Shown piece by piece: positions 23,625 through 59,727 of a stretch of 64,000 nucleotides of DNA (the first letter of the stretch is position 1; every line of letters begins with the position of its first letter). The notes beneath the pieces are model-generated. The model was not told the DNA's origin. It saw nothing but the letters and a program-made list of their open reading frames with translations, and searched no databases. The position numbers and the translations under genes were made by a program. Where the stretch lies: NCBI GenBank assembly GCA_965230295.1, contig OZ246001.1:224001-288000 (forward strand), in the 5' to 3' direction. The DNA is from Marinicella sp. Lineage in GTDB: Bacteria; Pseudomonadota; Gammaproteobacteria; Xanthomonadales; Marinicellaceae.

Positions 23625-23799
23625 TGAAGTCTCCAATTAGTGGTTTTGATAAAGCCTCAAAATCAATTTGCTGTCGCATAAACGCTTGAGGATTAATAAC
23701 TGGCGCGATTATAGCAACACAGTCGTGTTTTTTAAATGTAATTCAGTCAAAAGGCCATGATGAAACCAGATTTTTATTCATGCATCATTTCACTGACAA

Positions 23800-24038
23800 A
23801 AAGGAATGTTCTTGGGGCTCCATTCTGGTTCATGGTCTGACAGGTCTTCATATTTGCTGCGCAAATAAACCGACCTTTACAGACTATTGTCTGAGCAGTT
23901 GCTTCGCACTGCATGTCTGTTTCAGACAAAAGTGAAAGCGTCCACTGCGAACATAACTTGCTACCTCGGGCTCTTCACCTCTGATTCGCAAAGCTCACCA
24001 ACCGGCTCTGCGGGTCAAGCTGCTCAGCAGCTTTCCTA
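23800..24038 (-). mobile_element. MITE-like element, short copy A (~240 bp)
   Basis: Reverse complement is colinear with 24787-25339, including ~115 identical nt; short terminal repeats AGGAAAG...CATTCCT; non-coding and hairpin-rich. Confidence 0.8.
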
Positions 24039-24786: not shown

Positions 24787-25339
24787 TAGGAAAGCTGCTG
24801 AGCAGCTTGACCCGCCGAGCCGGTTAGGCAGTGAGTGGAATAAAGGTGGTTTTGCGAAGCAAAGAAACCTTTATGCAATGAGCGATAAGCCGTGAGCTAT
24901 TGATGTTGCGGCCGCTATCGCTCCTTGCTATCGCGGCAGACCTACATCCATGTAGGCCAATCAGAGGCGAAGAGAATAGCCAATGAGCATATGGCGATTT
25001 GACGAAGTCAAGAAGCCTTATGTGAATGGCGTTATAGCACAGGCAATGAAAGTTGGGCGGTTTTATCGAAGATAAAGAAGCCCGATTTGAATGCCGCAGT
25101 GCGTGCGAGGTAGCAAGTCATGTTCGCCGGTTAGGAAATGATTCGTTACGATTTTGCCAATGGCAAAGAAGTAACGGATGAATGCCGTAAACCGTGGTCG
25201 TTTTCACTTTTGTCTGAAACAGACATGCAGTGCGAAGCAACTGCTCAGACAATAGTCTGTAAAGGTCGGTTTATTTGCGCAGCAAATATGAAGACCTGTC
25301 AGACCATGAACCAGAATGAAGCCCAAAGAACATTCCTTT
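24787..25339 (+). mobile_element. MITE-like element, expanded copy B with internal hairpin modules
   Basis: Same backbone as copy A with extra blocks at 24826-24891, 24899-24958, 24975-25105 and 25128-25193. Confidence 0.8.
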
Positions 25340-25598
25340 ATATCATTCAGCCAAATCAGACAGCAAAGTTAGGGTTAAATACCCAGGACGATCGTTGAAA
25401 AATCACAACTTTTAAGCTGAAATGTTAAAAAATCCTGGGTCCGACAAAAACGCTAACCACCAAACACAACTTTTGATGATGTCATTCTTATTCGTATTTT
25501 GACCTATGTTCAATCTATGACCTCAATACTGCTGTCGAACCCAGAAACCTTCACACACTTATACACACACATTTTGCTTTTTTGTAGATTTATTCACA

Positions 25599-25649
25599 TT
25601 GTCCTTTGTTCTTTTTTGAATTACAATACTCTGTAAGTATTTTTACAGA
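25599..25649 (+). promoter_or_regulatory. Putative sigma70 promoter with downstream operator-like inverted repeat
   Basis: TTGTCC-N17-TACAAT (25599-25627) followed by TCTGTAA-N6-TTACAGA (25630-25649). Confidence 0.5.
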
Positions 25650-25655
25650 CCACTA

Positions 25656-26414
25656 ATGAGGGATAACCCAACTGTCAACACCTTATCTGAATTGTTGTAC
25701 GGCATCAGCCGCATGGCCTTCACAGGCAACATCAAAGTTCAAGACATAGAGAATCAACTCAGATTCAGTTTGGTCCAAGCTGCTCATGAAGTTTACCCAA
25801 ACAAAAATGTTTCTGAACTTCGTGAACTGACAGGAATTCCCAGAGCAAAAATAAAAAAATACCTTGATGGTGAAGTTCCAAAATTCAAACAAGATAAATT
25901 GGCGACTTTACTGAATGAGCTGACCAAGCTCATGGATCAGGAAAACTTATTGCCAAGAAGGGGAAAAAACTCCTTCACCTCAGCTGCTTACGACATCATA
26001 AACAGTTCATTTTCTCCAGACATTGCTCTCAATTCATTGATTAAATTAGGTGCCGTAGAATTATCTGGTGACAACATCAGGGTACTTACCACACGGTTAA
26101 CCGTTTCTAATGACCTTTTACTGTCATTCAAAGAAATCAGTAAAACAACACTGCTATTGATTGAATCTGGCTTACACAATGTCAACGAAAGAACACCTGA
26201 TGCACGCTTGTTCCAGCGAACCATTGCATCGACACAAATTCCACATTCAAGTTTGAAAGAACTTCATAAAGAAATCATGAGTTTGCTTAAAGCCATGAAA
26301 ATTGAGCTCAAAACGATCATTGATTCATATGAAGCCGAAGTCGAACCTGATAGTTATGGAGTGTACGGAGTGTCTCTTTTTGAGTTCTCTGATTATTTAA
26401 ACAACATCAAATAA
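25656..26414 (+). CDS. DUF6502-like protein (N-terminal HTH-like SELRELTGIPRAKI)
   Basis: Colinear with the 35965-36720 paralog (TGIPR/TGIDR, STQIPHS/SSKIPHS, YEAEVEPDSY/HETNVPEGTY, GVSLFEF/GFSQFQF). Confidence 0.65.
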   Translation: MRDNPTVNTLSELLYGISRMAFTGNIKVQDIENQLRFSLVQAAHEVYPNKNVSELRELTGIPRAKIKKYLDGEVPKFKQDKLATLLNELTKLMDQENLLPRRGKNSFTSAAYDIINSSFSPDIALNSLIKLGAVELSGDNIRVLTTRLTVSNDLLLSFKEISKTTLLLIESGLHNVNERTPDARLFQRTIASTQIPHSSLKELHKEIMSLLKAMKIELKTIIDSYEAEVEPDSYGVYGVSLFEFSDYLNNIK

Positions 26415-26424
26415 AGGTAATATT

Positions 26425-26745
26425 ATGAATAAGTTAATGATCGTATTAGCGGCATTGTGCTGTCTCGTTTCTGTTTCTTTCGCTTCAACAGACACAGGTA
26501 CTGGTGGCAATAAATCTACTGACACGGGAACGGGTGGTAAACCAGGGTTTTATCCCATTGAATTTTGTCAGTCCATAGCCAGCTTGGCAATGAGCAGGTC
26601 TACTGACACAGGAACGGGTGGAGGTAAATCAACCGATACCGGAACCGGTGGCGGCAAATCAACCGATACTGGAACCGGTGGTGGTATTAATGCGCTGCTT
26701 TTTGAATACAATGCATGTCTCAGTAACGAATTTAATGTCAAATAA
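26425..26745 (+). CDS. Secreted small protein with five STDTGTGG repeats
   Basis: AAAGGT RBS; signal peptide ending SFA|S; repeats identical in amino acids but synonymously diverged; hairpins downstream. Confidence 0.8.
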   Translation: MNKLMIVLAALCCLVSVSFASTDTGTGGNKSTDTGTGGKPGFYPIEFCQSIASLAMSRSTDTGTGGGKSTDTGTGGGKSTDTGTGGGINALLFEYNACLSNEFNVK

Positions 26746-26762
26746 GCTGAAGAAAAGCACAT

Positions 26763-26835
26763 CCCGGTAGCTTGAAACTACCGGGTTGTTGCTGATCAAT
26801 CAGCAACATCTCAATAGCCCTTCGGGACTTTTTTT
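26763..26835 (+). terminator. Hairpins / terminator after the DUF6502-peptide operon
   Basis: CCCGGTAG-CTTGAAA-CTACCGGG, then AGCCC-TTC-GGGACT followed by a T-run. Confidence 0.55.
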
Positions 26836-26973
26836 GAACCACAATGACAGGTGTATTCTGTCATTGTTAAGTCGTTGTTATTTAAAAAAAAGATGCCAAT
26901 GTCGCTGTGCAACGTGCGGTTTTGAATCGATGTGTGAGTTTTTGGTAAGAACGAACATTCTGTCTTAATGTAC

Positions 26974-27007
26974 GTTATTGGTCGGAACTAAAGGGTTTGA
27001 ACCTCTC
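26974..27007 (-). other. Degenerate duplicate of the tRNA-Pro 3' end (att-like scar)
   Basis: GTTATTGGTCGGAACTAAAGGGTTTGAACCTC versus GTTATTGGTCGGAGCGAGAGGATTTGAACCTC starting at 27366. Confidence 0.7.
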
Positions 27008-27020
27008 GTTACACCTTTCT

Positions 27021-27049
27021 CCAGAATGAAGCCCCAAGAACATTCCTTT
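27021..27049 (+). mobile_element. Isolated terminal fragment of the A/B MITE family
   Basis: CCAGAATGAAGCCCCAAGAACATTCCTTT matches the end of copy B (25311-25339). Confidence 0.75.
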
Positions 27050-27348: not shown

Positions 27349-27370
27349 TCAGAATTAAAAGCTAAGTTAT

Positions 27371-27447
27371 TGGTCGGAGCGAGAGGATTTGAACCTCCGA
27401 CCCCCACAACCCCATTGTGGTGCGCTACCAAGCTGCGCTACGCTCCG
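27371..27447 (-). tRNA. tRNA-Pro(GGG)
   Basis: CGGAGCGTAGCGCAGCTTGGTAGCGCACCACAAT-GGG-GTTGTGGGGGTCGGAGGTTCAAATCCTCTCGCTCCGACCA; usual position after ihfA-merR. Confidence 0.97.
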
Positions 27448-35964: not shown

Positions 35965-36720
35965 ATGAATAGTGAAAAAAGACATTTAGTACAGCTACAA
36001 AAGGCACTGATTCCAGTGAGTAAAATGGTGATTAAATTTGGTTTACAATGCCAAGAATTCAAAGCCAACATTCAAAAAGCATACATCAAAGCCGCTGAAG
36101 AACTGTTGGAGGAAGCCCAAATCAAGCCCACCAGACAAGCCATTGCGGTCAAAACAGGCATCGACCGACGGGTCATTGCTGAATTCTACAATGACAAAGA
36201 TTTCAGCAAAGAAGTGATGAACAAAATGGATTTGGTGATCATAGCCTTACAAAAAGCGAAAAGAATCAGCAAAAAGTTAACCCATGCCAACCTCACCACT
36301 TTAATTGATAAAATTTACGGCAATCACATCAGAGCCAGGGCTGTGATTACTGAATTGGTCAGCAATCAGATGATCGTTAAGCGAGGAAACTACTATTACA
36401 TTGCTAAATCATTGAACCAGCAGTTGATCAAACAAGCCGCATTGGCAGAAGAAGTGGACATCACAACCAAGCGCCTGTTTCAGACTTTTTACAAGAAGAT
36501 GTTTGCCACCAATCAGCAACAGAATCTCAATCAAGCCTCCATATTTTCCAGTAAGATTCCTCACAGTCGGCATGAGGAAATCAATAAAATCATCGACATC
36601 AAAATGCGCACCTTTCAAAAAGAAATGGCGGAATTGATTCAACACCACGAAACCAATGTACCGGAAGGGACTTACGCCAACATTGGGTTTTCCCAGTTTC
36701 AGTTTGATTCAACGGAGTAG
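35965..36720 (+). CDS. DUF6502-like protein
   Basis: ALIPVSKMVIKFG..EF..KAYIKAA..PTRQAIAVKTGIDRR resembles the DUF6502 N-terminal pattern as I recall it. Confidence 0.7.
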   Translation: MNSEKRHLVQLQKALIPVSKMVIKFGLQCQEFKANIQKAYIKAAEELLEEAQIKPTRQAIAVKTGIDRRVIAEFYNDKDFSKEVMNKMDLVIIALQKAKRISKKLTHANLTTLIDKIYGNHIRARAVITELVSNQMIVKRGNYYYIAKSLNQQLIKQAALAEEVDITTKRLFQTFYKKMFATNQQQNLNQASIFSSKIPHSRHEEINKIIDIKMRTFQKEMAELIQHHETNVPEGTYANIGFSQFQFDSTE

Positions 36721-42489: not shown

Positions 42490-43095
42490 ATGAAAAATTT
42501 TAAATTAAAACCTGTCAATGCAGCCATTGCAGCAGCCGTAACAGTCGTTGGAGCTGGTGCTTTAATGAGTGGCACGGATAACCCATTTGGTCAAACAGAT
42601 TTGAGCGATGGTTACCAAAATGCTGATGGTCGCATTGCTAAAGCCGATGGGTCTGGAGAAGGCAAATGCGGTGAAGGTAAATGTGGCGGCGACGATAAAA
42701 AAGCCGAAGGCAAGTGCGGTGAAGGCAAATGCGGTGGCGACAAAAAAGCCGAAGGCAAATGTGGTGAAGGCAAATGCGGCGGCGACAAAAAAGGCAAAAA
42801 AGCCGAAGGCAAATGCGGTGAAGGCAAATGCGGCGGCGACAAAAAAGGCAAAAAAGCCGAAGGCAAATGCGGTGAAGGCAAATGCGGTGGCGATAAAAAA
42901 GGCAAAAAAGCCGAAGGCAAATGCGGTGAAGGCAAATGCGGCGGCGACAAAAAAGCCGAAGGCAAGTGCGGTGAAGGCAAATGCGGCGGCGACAAGAAAG
43001 CCGAAGGCAAGTGCGGTGAAGGCAAATGCGGCGGTGATAAAAAAGCCGACAAAGCCGAAGGTAAATGCGGCGAAGGTAAATGCGGCGGCCAATAA
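42490..43095 (+). CDS. hvfA: HvfA-family (oxazolin/bufferin-like) RiPP precursor with 9 x EGKCGEGKCGG
   Basis: Signal-like N-terminus, NPF..LSDGY leader motif, 18 EGKCG units; upstream of the DUF692 gene. Confidence 0.9.
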   Translation: MKNFKLKPVNAAIAAAVTVVGAGALMSGTDNPFGQTDLSDGYQNADGRIAKADGSGEGKCGEGKCGGDDKKAEGKCGEGKCGGDKKAEGKCGEGKCGGDKKGKKAEGKCGEGKCGGDKKGKKAEGKCGEGKCGGDKKGKKAEGKCGEGKCGGDKKAEGKCGEGKCGGDKKAEGKCGEGKCGGDKKADKAEGKCGEGKCGGQ

Positions 43096-43109
43096 CTGGA
43101 TAAACTGAA

Positions 43110-43964
43110 ATGAAAAAATTAGACATTTCAGGCGCCGGTATCGGTTTGAGACGGGGACTTGTGTCCCCGTTTCAGTCTCATGGTGACCTCAATCCAGTCA
43201 AGTTCATGGAAGTGGCACCAGAAAACTGGATGACTGTGGGCGGTAAAGCCCAACATGACTTCAGGGCTTTTGCTGAGCAATACCCCATGATTTTGCATGG
43301 ATTATCGCTTTCTATAGGTGGGCCTGATGAACTTAATGTGGCTTTTCTCAAAGCTTTAAAAAAATTCAAAGAATCCATCAAGGCACCCATTTATTCAGAA
43401 CACCTCTCCTATTGCACTGATGGCGGTCAATTGTATGATTTGATGCCCATTCCATTCACCCTGGAGGCGGCCGATTACGTGGCGGATCGAGTCTTACAGG
43501 TGCAAGACATCTTAGGTGAACGCATGGCACTGGAAAATGTGTCATATTACTTACGCCAGCCCAACTCGGAAATGACTGAGATTGAATTCATCAACCATGT
43601 CATCAAGAAAGCTGATTGTTATTTACATCTGGATGTCAACAACATCCATGTCAATAGCGTTAATCACCGTTATGACCCCTATGAATTTCTCAACCAGTTA
43701 CCCACTGACAGGATTGCATATATTCACATTGCCGGCCACTATAACGAAGCCGATGATTTGATCGTTGATACCCATGGTGCAGCTGTGATTGAAAAGGTGT
43801 GGCAAATCTTAGAATACACATACCAAAATCATGGCGTTTATCCAACACTTTTGGAACGTGATTTTAATTACCCGCCTGTCGTAGAATTATTGCGTGAAGT
43901 GTCGCGCATAGATGCCTTACAAGAAAAATACAGTGCCAGTCATGACCAGCAAGCCATCCTTTAA
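43110..43964 (+). CDS. hvfB: Multinuclear non-heme iron oxidative enzyme (DUF692/MNIO, HvfB-like)
   Basis: GIGLR, EVAPENW, HGLSLSIG, SEHLS, ENVSYY, LDVNN, HIAGH, DTHG, LLERD. Confidence 0.93.
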   Translation: MKKLDISGAGIGLRRGLVSPFQSHGDLNPVKFMEVAPENWMTVGGKAQHDFRAFAEQYPMILHGLSLSIGGPDELNVAFLKALKKFKESIKAPIYSEHLSYCTDGGQLYDLMPIPFTLEAADYVADRVLQVQDILGERMALENVSYYLRQPNSEMTEIEFINHVIKKADCYLHLDVNNIHVNSVNHRYDPYEFLNQLPTDRIAYIHIAGHYNEADDLIVDTHGAAVIEKVWQILEYTYQNHGVYPTLLERDFNYPPVVELLREVSRIDALQEKYSASHDQQAIL

Positions 43965-44700
43965 ACAAGTTCAAGTCGACTTCGCAGCTCACATCAGGGA
44001 TCCAGAATCAAACCTCATTCCTGATCACATCGAAGAGCGGCGCATGGACATCTATCGAAACTTGTTCATTAACAGCATCAGTGGCTTACTGAGCGGCTCA
44101 TTTCCAGTCATGAGGTCCCTATTCAGCGATACTGCCTGGGAAAAGCTGGTCAGACAGTTTTTTAAGAAAGAACACAACAAAACCCCTCACTTCCCGGAAA
44201 TACCACGTGAATTTGTGGAATTCCTGAAACAGCATGAAGTGGATCCCAAAAGACCATTTTTATATGAACTGGCCCATTATGAGTGGATTGAGTTGCACTT
44301 AGAAAAACACTCTGTAGAAATCAATAAAAACCATTCAACCCAAGAGCAACAATTGCTGGATCAAATACCTGTGGTTTCTCCGCTGGCCAAAATCCAGGCT
44401 TACCAGTACCCAGTGCACCAAATTAAATCTGATTACCAACCCACTGAACCGTCAGCACAGCCATTGTTTATGCTGATATGGCGAGATGCTGATTACCAAG
44501 TTCAGTTTGCAGAATTGAATCCGTTCTCTGCCATGTTGTTAGAAACATTGGTCAATAACAACAACCAAACCGGCGAACAGATACTGCGTGTACTGGCAGA
44601 ACAAAACAACCAACCAAATACTGACCAATTCATAGTATTCGGCCACCAAGCCATGACCAAATGGCTTCATCAAGACATCATATTAACTACAGAAAAATAA
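43942..44700 (+). CDS. hvfC: DUF2063 RiPP-recognition partner protein (HvfC-like)
   Basis: FAAHIRDP, RRMDIYRNL, FPV, TPHFPEI, ELAHYEW. Confidence 0.9.
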   Translation: MTSKPSFKQVQVDFAAHIRDPESNLIPDHIEERRMDIYRNLFINSISGLLSGSFPVMRSLFSDTAWEKLVRQFFKKEHNKTPHFPEIPREFVEFLKQHEVDPKRPFLYELAHYEWIELHLEKHSVEINKNHSTQEQQLLDQIPVVSPLAKIQAYQYPVHQIKSDYQPTEPSAQPLFMLIWRDADYQVQFAELNPFSAMLLETLVNNNNQTGEQILRVLAEQNNQPNTDQFIVFGHQAMTKWLHQDIILTTEK

Positions 44701-44714
44701 CAAAGGAGACAAAC

Positions 44715-45380
44715 ATGTCATTACATGCTGCACAAAATTTGTGGGTCAATCTCACCAGCCGTTTGAATTCAGTGGGCCAATGGGTGCCACCATTTTTAAT
44801 TCGTTTGATCCTGTTTTGGGAGTTTTACGAGGCAGGCACACAGAAAATCAATGGTGAAAATTGGTTTGCAGGCATTCAAAGCAACTTCCCTTTCCCGTTC
44901 AATCACATTCCAGCAGACGTCTCCTGGTTTATGGCAGCCTGGGGCGAATATTTATTCGCCATCCTGTTGTTACTGGGTTTATTCACCCGATTTGCTGCCG
45001 TTTCATTATTGGTGATCACAGCAGTAGCCACAGCAGCCGTTCACTGGCCTGAAAGTTATTCATCATTAGGTCAATTGTGGGAAGGCTATGCGATATCCAA
45101 CAAAGGCGCTGGTAACTTTAAACTGCCATTGTTGTTTGTGATCCTGCTGTTGCCATTGATCTTCTCTGGCGGTGGTAAATTCAGTCTGGATCATGTATTG
45201 ACAAAATTTACAGGCGGTGATGGCACCCACCCCATCACTTCTGATTTCGTTTCGAAAGGTTTGGGTCTGATCGTGATCGGCTTGCCTTTGTTCTTTGTCA
45301 CTGATTATGTGGGCATCGGATTGATCGTGTTGGGCATTGTATTGGCCATTGCTGATCGATTCATCACACCAAAGGGGTAA
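44715..45380 (+). CDS. DoxX-family membrane protein of the MNIO RiPP operon
   Basis: RLILFWEFYEAG, FPFPF, LLGLFTR, VHW, GNFKLPL, GGKFSLD. Confidence 0.88.
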   Translation: MSLHAAQNLWVNLTSRLNSVGQWVPPFLIRLILFWEFYEAGTQKINGENWFAGIQSNFPFPFNHIPADVSWFMAAWGEYLFAILLLLGLFTRFAAVSLLVITAVATAAVHWPESYSSLGQLWEGYAISNKGAGNFKLPLLFVILLLPLIFSGGGKFSLDHVLTKFTGGDGTHPITSDFVSKGLGLIVIGLPLFFVTDYVGIGLIVLGIVLAIADRFITPKG

Positions 45381-59537: not shown

Positions 59538-59727
59538 GGTGTTGACTGCCGTGTTCGAGGTATATAAGCATATGCCTTGGCCCTAATTAATATTTACAGG
59601 AATTTTTATCGGCTTGTCAGTGTGCATGCTCACCTTGTAGTGAGAAGCCTTAGACAGTAGAGGAATTTCCGCCTTGTACCTTTGGTACCAAGGACGCCAG
59701 TATACAACGGCACAAGTGGTCAACATC
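59538..59727 (+). ncRNA. ssrS: 6S RNA
   Basis: ~190 nt between zapA and ygfA; terminal pairing GGTGTTGACTGCCGTGT / ACAACGGCACAAGTGGTCAACATC. Confidence 0.88.

Follow-up and report, generated by a model that had tools for sequence, protein, structure and literature searches.

A stretch of 64,000 nucleotides (nt) from the genome of a Marinicella sp. (assembly GCA_965230295.1, contig OZ246001.1, positions 224,001 to 288,000 of a source genome of 4.008 Mb in one contig; the whole stretch is referred to here as the window) contains two short genes on the same strand that encode a putative transcription factor (gene 1) and a small exported protein (gene 2). The locus is arranged as described in the original prediction, i.e. 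it consists of two open reading frames (ORFs) with a gap of 10 nt, five exact copies of the unit STDTGTGG in gene 2, a bracket formed by Cys48 and Cys98, and hairpins after the second gene. Such a pattern is far outside what chance would produce. Here, we report that this module is a new minimal form of a widespread and unstudied gene pair, DUF6502-DUF5666.

Gene 2 begins with MNKLMIVLAALCCLVSVSFA, followed by S at the predicted cleavage site, and has a short basic n-region, a hydrophobic core and a c-region ending in SFA; signal peptide and cleavage site were judged by eye from the n-, h- and c-regions and the -3/-1 rule. The exact units occupy residues 21-28, 31-38, 59-66, 69-76 and 79-86; the residue just before each of units 2-5 is K, R, K and K, respectively, and the two Cys residues flank units 3-5. 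The five 30-nt DNA copies of the unit are just 73-77% identical to the reference copy, and the pairwise comparison of five 7-residue windows gives 43 synonymous and 0 non-synonymous codon differences, in agreement with the purifying selection that had been proposed for the units. Because the codons vary while the residues are invariant, the identity of the units is held at the protein level, and this rules out both recent slippage as the origin of the repeats and a role of the repeat as DNA operator sites inside the gene. Antisense ORFs over the array (e.g. 26568-26762, minus strand, with PPVPVSVDL repeats) are mirror images of the repeat and not genes. In the gene 2 orthologues P0069 (79% identity), P0070 and P0071 (50% and 45%), the units are kept and the spacers have diverged. 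Gene 2 matches no family in Pfam, NCBIfam or PADLOC; with no DUF5666 (PF18914) domain detected by Pfam, what is present is a signal peptide, the array and short Cys-flanked spacers, as expected from the proposal that the partner is here reduced to the motif alone.

A phmmer search with gene 1 against 1.84 billion representatives returned 67 proteins at E <= 1e-3. Gene 1 has no direct Pfam match to DUF6502 (PF20112), but 9 of its 48 aligned phmmer homologues match this family (best E = 2.1e-30), and hhalign aligned the gene-1 family alignment (A1) with 15 canonical DUF6502 proteins over the full length (99.9%, E = 2e-34, 254 columns), as it did the nine closest relatives of gene 1 alone (98.4%, E = 9.5e-15, 240 columns). 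By these profile comparisons, gene 1 is a divergent full-length member of the DUF6502 superfamily, as originally suggested. Three other genes of the same genome exceed the PF20112 cut-off and gene 1 is not among them; NCBIfam matched neither gene 1 nor the other regulators or the arrays. The helix-turn-helix (HTH)-like segment that had been noticed in gene 1 is weakly detectable at residues 51-87 (Table 1) and in a PDB profile search as a HipB/Xre-type HTH (E ~0.02, profile positions 39-95), together with a weak MarR-type winged helix at positions 103-183; this part of the prediction stands as a sub-threshold assignment. The nearly invariant columns of the family comprise G60 and R63 in a TGIxR segment as well as L128 and N175. 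Pfam detected no TPR (tetratricopeptide repeat) domain in gene 1, and the 14 families listed for the 48 homologues do not include one. Searches of the PDB by sequence and by profile yielded nothing for a DUF5666 partner, designed helical repeats alone for canonical DUF6502, and no solved structure for either family. A tblastn search against plasmids and phages gave no match, and relatives of gene 1 were found neither in the genome-contig collection nor in the metagenome contigs searched.

Of 301 genomes sampled from the class, 73 contain PF20112; none of 14 control genomes does. Literature searches found no paper on DUF6502, and broader ones nothing relevant to the pair; DUF5666 is mentioned in 6 papers, and in those examined, as far as their accessible text extends, it is a table entry. 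The original prediction had stated that DUF6502 genes often neighbour exported DUF5666 proteins with a GIGGTG-like motif, and this is what the loci display: an exported DUF5666 partner with the motif close to the mature N-terminus lies directly downstream on the same strand at 23 of the 30 best canonical DUF6502 loci (22 of 29 if L134, a locus of the unpublished genome G354, is left out). At one more locus there is no space for a gene downstream. All 11 full-length large partners tested (6 + 5) match DUF5666 in Pfam. Gene order is the same as in the window and the junctions are tight or overlapping. In the canonical partner, a signal or lipobox is followed by a Gly-rich linker, the motif G-I-G-G-T-G (or GISGSG, GIDGTG and similar) and FGS(I/V)xVNG at the start of the DUF5666 domain. 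At 20 more diverged loci, the motif is often in tandem, as G[ILF][GD]GTG in 2-16 copies: L170 has 16 copies of AGIDGTG, and L171, L172, L173, L175, L176, L179, L184 and L185 have 3-6 copies. The ratio of synonymous to non-synonymous codon differences is 419 to 0 in L170 and 52 to 0 in L179, and in five of these arrays the copies are enclosed by an N-terminal Cys on one side and the Cys of FGSICVNG on the other. Selection thus acts on the motif as a unit of its own.

Canonical pairs and the module in the window are connected by intermediate forms. Four mid-size partners (216-266 amino acids) have 2-4 motif copies before a hydrophobic signal or anchor segment and more copies after it. In one of these, L166, the four N-terminal AETEGTG units have accumulated 24 synonymous and 0 non-synonymous differences, and these units are therefore translated and selected. 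The N-terminal copies of the mid-size partners are on the cytoplasmic side, as is the regulator. A tree of 84 regulators, built with a quick method, with several long branches flagged and rooted on the canonical GIGGTG-partnered regulators, places first a Marinicella pair partnered with QGGTG/DUF5666 proteins, then the clade with mid-size partners, and then a radiation of 71 rows that holds all small-array modules. Regulator and motif are the elements that stay constant throughout the superfamily; the DUF5666 domains can be lost while the pairing stays. Gene 2 is by this comparison a minimal form of the N-terminal motif array of canonical partners. Unit types follow regulator clades, and in the six genomes with at least three array modules no unit sequence recurs between loci.

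Relatives of gene 1 occur in 33 of 36 genomes of the Marinicellaceae, the taxonomic family of the window, with up to six or more per genome. We examined 73 loci, 33 returned by searches and 40 fetched, and found a motif-array ORF at most 700 bp from the regulator in 42 of them, in 21 genomes and all five sampled genera; the linkage of homologous regulators to repeat peptides, a point at which the original prediction could fail, is not refuted. Small partners of ~76-146 amino acids (one partly masked) account for 39 of the 42 array loci and the mid-size type for three. The units are diverse (STDTGTGG, AEDGTGQ, AQDGTGN, VVGDGSN, VGGDGTG, VGGGGTG, VENSGSG, VEGEGTG, IDSDGSG, TESDGSG, SESEGTG, GNGDGSG, VEQEGTD and others) and share the pattern x-[DEG]-G-[TS]-[GDN]. 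Successive cores are spaced by exactly 9 residues in 74 of 127 cases, and a K or R follows within three residues of the core in 96 of 166 (58%, compared with 21% expected). A Cys stands on each side in 33 of 39 arrays and inside in none; in many small partners, the predicted cleavage site coincides with the first motif copy. In a pool of 36 partners, flanks counted as well, there are 683 synonymous and 258 non-synonymous codon differences. An all-versus-all comparison of flanking ORFs within ~1.5 kb revealed no third conserved gene in 43 loci.

The genome of the window itself has seven DUF6502-superfamily genes (three of them paralogues found with gene 1 as query), and five of the seven are accompanied by a motif partner. 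Two of these partners are DUF5666 proteins, each with QGGTG in two copies, one is of the mid-size type and two are small arrays. In genome coordinates, the mid-size partner is at 2553845-2554561 and an AEDGTGQ module at 3169839-3170859. In a scan for short-period repeats (exact 5-mers, period 7-14, frames up to 300 amino acids), just seven loci of this genome have at least three tandem exact 5-mers; three of the seven adjoin DUF6502-superfamily genes and a fourth is HvfA. Other short-period coding repeats outside the window are found at G000:C1:2773834-2774632 and 3975462-3975872; LSAGL occurs in the 12 units of the former and SNCSA in the 9 of the latter.

Several loci depart from the simple pair. 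In L007 and L009 (genomes G031 and G029, of one genus), an array gene is followed by two regulators in tandem. In L005 (G021), a single array gene has two regulators converging on it; of these, the regulator that most resembles gene 1 is without an array of its own. In L112 (G036), two tandem array genes (664-978 and 1003-1323, with SESEGTG x5 each) precede one regulator. The window also contains a second paralogue of gene 1 at 35995-36708, which is 22% identical to it and has no motif partner; the gene beside it is presumably pdxJ-like, a name read off the translation. This paralogue belongs to an arrayless clade of 13 members with conserved synteny in many Marinicella genomes.

Upstream of gene 1, an operator-like palindrome lies just after a promoter-like site (Table 1), and L005_1495, the closest paralogue-type regulator from another genome, is preceded by the same half-sites with the same spacing. 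The palindrome of the window is unique in the 4.0-Mb genome, as is the one that precedes the L004 regulator. In four regulators of the AEDGTGQ/ANDGTGQ clade, the sole strongly conserved upstream non-coding element is TGCATA-N4/5-TATGCA, which follows a -35/-10-like pair and precedes the start codon; the promoter candidate of the window, just upstream of its palindrome and of the gene 1 start codon, has the same layout. In total, six clades have clade-specific palindromes upstream of the regulator, the others being GTGTCCA..TGGACAC, TATCGTAA-AAAG-TTACGATA, TTGTGCA..TGCACAA and TGTACAA-NN-TTGTACA. By one fixed criterion, a palindrome is present in 16 of 74 family members and in 98 of 1200 control ORFs, an odds ratio of 3.1 among relatives that are not independent of each other. 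These elements suggest putative private operators and autoregulation. At the other end of the module, two hairpins (26763-26785 and 26787-26808) lie past the stop codon of gene 2; the 81-nt stretch after the stop codon folds at -28.7 kcal/mol (z = -4.3), and 0 of 200 shuffles fold equally well.

Table 1. The two-gene module and its features, with positions counted from the first nucleotide of the window.
Feature	Position	Strand	Basis
Sigma-70-like promoter candidate: -35 TTGTCC, 17-nt spacer, -10 TACAAT	25599-25627	+	9/12 positions match
Operator-like palindrome TCTGTAA-N6-TTACAGA, ends 6 nt before gene 1 ATG	25630-25649	.	sequence
Gene 1, 252-amino-acid DUF6502-superfamily protein, putative HTH/winged-helix transcription factor	25656-26414	+	ORF, homology to PF20112
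HTH segment of gene 1, residues 51-87	25806-25916	+	Pfam HTH_26, E = 0.025
Gene 2, 106-amino-acid exported motif-array protein	26425-26745	+	ORF
Sec-type signal peptide, residues 1-20, predicted cleavage between SFA and S	26425-26484	+	read by eye
Units 1-2 (STDTGTGG-NK, STDTGTGG-KP)	26485-26544	+	
Cys48 codon	26566-26568	+	
Units 3-5 (3x STDTGTGGG, then K, K, I)	26599-26688	+	
Cys98 codon	26716-26718	+	
Terminator region: two strong hairpins, then short stem with T-run	26763-26836	+	folding

The pheT of the window has 71-79% identity to its counterparts in Marinicella strains and metagenome-assembled genomes, which places the source genome in Marinicella, marine and non-pathogenic. The module sits between a doxX-like gene and tRNA-Pro, merR-like, ihfA and pheT. 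In one Marinicella metagenome-assembled genome doxX directly adjoins merR and the module is absent, and another has gene-1 homologues at the same place; the site is therefore variable. More generally, the region from doxX to tRNA-Pro differs among Marinicella genomes. A repeat of ~145-152 nt resembling a miniature inverted-repeat transposable element (MITE) is found at 23794-23945 and 25194-25345, with a partial copy at 27008-27049; it has at least 40 copies in the genome (94-100% identity), and the doxX-like gene just upstream of the module has an inverted pair of copies around it. The 3' end of tRNA-Pro(GGG) has a partial direct duplicate (86%; 26971-27005 and 27363-27397) at 392 nt from the tRNA gene, which looks like an att-like remnant. 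With the variable region, the MITE-like repeats and the tRNA 3'-end duplicate nearby, an origin of the module in a mobile island was considered and dropped; no integrase was seen. Elsewhere in the window lie an ordinary 6S RNA at 59540-59726 (Rfam RF00013, 87.6 bits) and, at 42490-45380, a complete HvfA-HvfB-HvfC-HvfX cluster of a known kind, with all four proteins above the NCBIfam cut-offs; these are the precursor of an oxazolone/thioamide metallophore of the RiPP type (a peptide made on the ribosome and modified after translation), with EGKCG repeats and a signal peptide, an MNIO (multinuclear non-heme iron oxidase) maturase, a partner protein and a Cu-binding maturation protein, respectively.

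Combining these data, we are confident of the descriptive layer, i.e. the homology of the regulators, the recurrent pairing, selection on the motif, the Cys bracket, the lack of a third gene, the clade palindromes and the motif variants and palindromes that differ between the several modules in one genome. The comparative part of the original prediction is supported; its mechanistic part, in which short peptides would be cut free and sensed by the regulator in an RRNPP-like manner or the precursor would be modified in trans, is a hypothesis. As an explanation of the whole, to which we give somewhat less than an even chance, we tentatively suggest a self-contained two-gene DUF6502-superfamily module in which an autoregulating factor would be paired with an exported motif array serving as its cue: (i) gene 1 would be a cytoplasmic HTH/winged-helix transcription factor, (ii) gene 1, probably as a dimer, would control the operon by binding the module-specific palindrome that lies after the promoter and ahead of the start codon of gene 1, (iii) gene 2 would be exported by Sec and closed by one disulfide, nearly all of it consisting of tandem copies of x-[D/E/G]-G-[T/S]-G that are often followed by a basic residue, and (iv) the motif, either within the precursor or as a fragment after proteolysis, would act as the cue in a private feedback or signalling loop. 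Step (iv), in which the cognate regulator may read the motif of the precursor or of a released fragment, is by itself a serious possibility that falls short of probable. We favor the feedback loop with the motif as cue given that the regulator and the motif are constant, that the DUF5666 domains can be lost and that each small array has a private regulator and a private palindrome.

Several observations weigh against this explanation. At the level of the regulator, gene 1 has no Pfam match to PF20112 at E <= 1 (gathering score, 27 bits), and all HTH assignments in the Pfam and PDB profile searches are sub-threshold. At the level of the promoter region, the number of promoter-like matches is that expected by chance (6 found, 6.0 expected in shuffles), and the palindromes could instead be RNA hairpins in the 5' untranslated region: that of L116 folds strongly as RNA (-19.7 kcal/mol, z = -5.2), and that of the window weakly (-8.1 kcal/mol, z = -1.2). 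At the level of the cue, the canonical motif sits on a large lipoprotein, hardly an evident candidate for a diffusible signal; 42% of the cores have no nearby basic residue; and no protease, peptide transporter or maturase is linked to the modules among 43 loci. Moreover, 31 of the 73 loci have no array ORF, 13 of these being the conserved clade that includes the paralogue of the window and a few others being cut by contig ends. Finally, the co-variation of units and clades is expected from co-inheritance alone and is not proof of co-evolution.

Alternatively, the array would have its only role outside the cytoplasm, for instance in multivalent binding to an ion, polysaccharide or surface, as a flexible tether or for display, and the regulator would read an unrelated cue and never contact the motif. 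We consider this alternative and the motif as cue about equally likely, and the two explanations discussed further below less likely. That the motif was ancestrally part of large exported DUF5666 proteins, that disulfide-closed arrays fit a stable periplasmic or extracellular product, and that no transporter or protease is linked would all be accounted for. Many Marinicellaceae units also resemble acidic D-x-D-G-[ST]-G turns, which we take to be similar to Ca-binding loops. The repeats-in-toxin (RTX) nonapeptide is GGxGxDxUx and an EF-hand-like loop is DxDxDG; in a comparison by eye, the 9-residue period fits and D-S-D-G-[ST]-G is the sequence of some units; a match to a repeat family in Pfam was not obtained. 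RTX- or EF-hand-type Ca binding as the common function was dropped, since the canonical units lack acidic residues; units such as GIGGTG and VGGGGTG without such residues make any common ion-binding role unlikely. An exclusively extracytoplasmic role also leaves unexplained why each tiny array has a private regulator and a private palindrome, and why the mid-size type has motif copies on the cytoplasmic side.

The copies on the cytoplasmic side raise another alternative, which we regard as improbable, in which the regulator would bind the motif in the unexported precursor or in the cytoplasmic tail of a mid-size partner, in a manner reminiscent of anti-sigma factors and with neither release nor re-import of a peptide. 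Sensing or sequestration of this type before export would couple transcription to export or to the stability of the partner. It would make sense of the motif copies upstream of the hydrophobic segment in 4/4 mid-size partners, which are under purifying selection, and of the first copy directly at the predicted signal-peptidase site in many small partners. However, after export nothing of the canonical and small partners is left in the cytoplasm, and the 3-16 exported copies and the Cys bracket are left without an explanation. Least probable is a RiPP-like precursor whose units would be core peptides, with modifying enzymes encoded at other loci and a regulator that would merely control the precursor: the repeated cores do contain T/S, D/E and K residues and the organism makes such products, as evidenced by the Sec-signal tandem-repeat precursor HvfA in the same window (42490-43095), but HvfA adjoins the maturases HvfB, HvfC and HvfX whereas 0 of 43 module loci have a conserved third gene, the modules matched no RiPP family in profile searches (maturases elsewhere in the genome were not searched for), and a classical cleavable Sec signal would take the precursor away from cytoplasmic enzymes. 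Graspetide-like cross-linking and a relation to sortase-like LPxTG signals were also considered and dropped; the module loci have no linked enzyme.

The data bring two Pfam families of unknown function together in one conserved module, with a transcription factor and a six-residue exported motif as its constant elements. The Marinicella form consists of those two elements alone and is thus the simplest system for asking what the motif does. If the motif is the cue, the module would represent peptide feedback or communication in Gram-negative bacteria without a described counterpart, i.e. a new kind of system. Extending the argument to the superfamily, DUF6502 regulators in general could act in the cytoplasm as receptors that recognize the G-T-G motif of the exported partner encoded with them, and the Marinicellaceae could have stripped the partner down to disulfide-closed cue units and multiplied the result into several orthogonal autoregulated cassettes per genome. 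We consider this extension rather unlikely; if true, it would imply a widespread peptide-cue system, functionally analogous to Rap-Phr, with the family in about a quarter of the sampled Gammaproteobacteria. If the motif is not a cue, the arrays still constitute a new class of repeat proteins that are small, disulfide-closed and periplasmic or secreted, and every one of them has its private regulator.

Among known systems, other secreted repeats resemble the module in parts. In fungal alpha-factor and other Kex2-processed proteins, a secreted polyprotein contains identical short units separated by basic residues; in the module, in contrast, the basic residues are single and follow 58% of the cores alone, no dedicated protease is linked and the host is prokaryotic. 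Sec-signal RiPP precursors of the HvfA/bufferin type are likewise small exported proteins of tandem short units with conserved residues, but HvfA is flanked by MNIO maturase genes, of which there are none at the module, and the module units have no internal Cys. In the Rap-Phr/RRNPP cassettes of Firmicutes, a regulator gene is followed a few nt on by a small gene for a Sec-exported pro-peptide, and many paralogous cassettes have distinct peptides. The module shares with them the small exported pro-peptide-like gene next to a regulator and the multiple cassettes; it differs in that its regulator has no TPR domain, the defining feature of those receptors, in its Gram-negative host and in that the peptide is a disulfide-closed tandem array. 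The closest relationship is to the DUF6502-DUF5666 pairs, which the module in the window resembles in full-length homology of the regulator, in gene order and in the exported G-T-G partner, whose motif is often in tandem and often lies between two Cys residues. Compared with these pairs, gene 1 does not reach the Pfam threshold, none of the DUF5666 domains is left in gene 2, the units of the window type carry D/E where the canonical ones have I/L/F or G, and several paralogous modules coexist in one genome.

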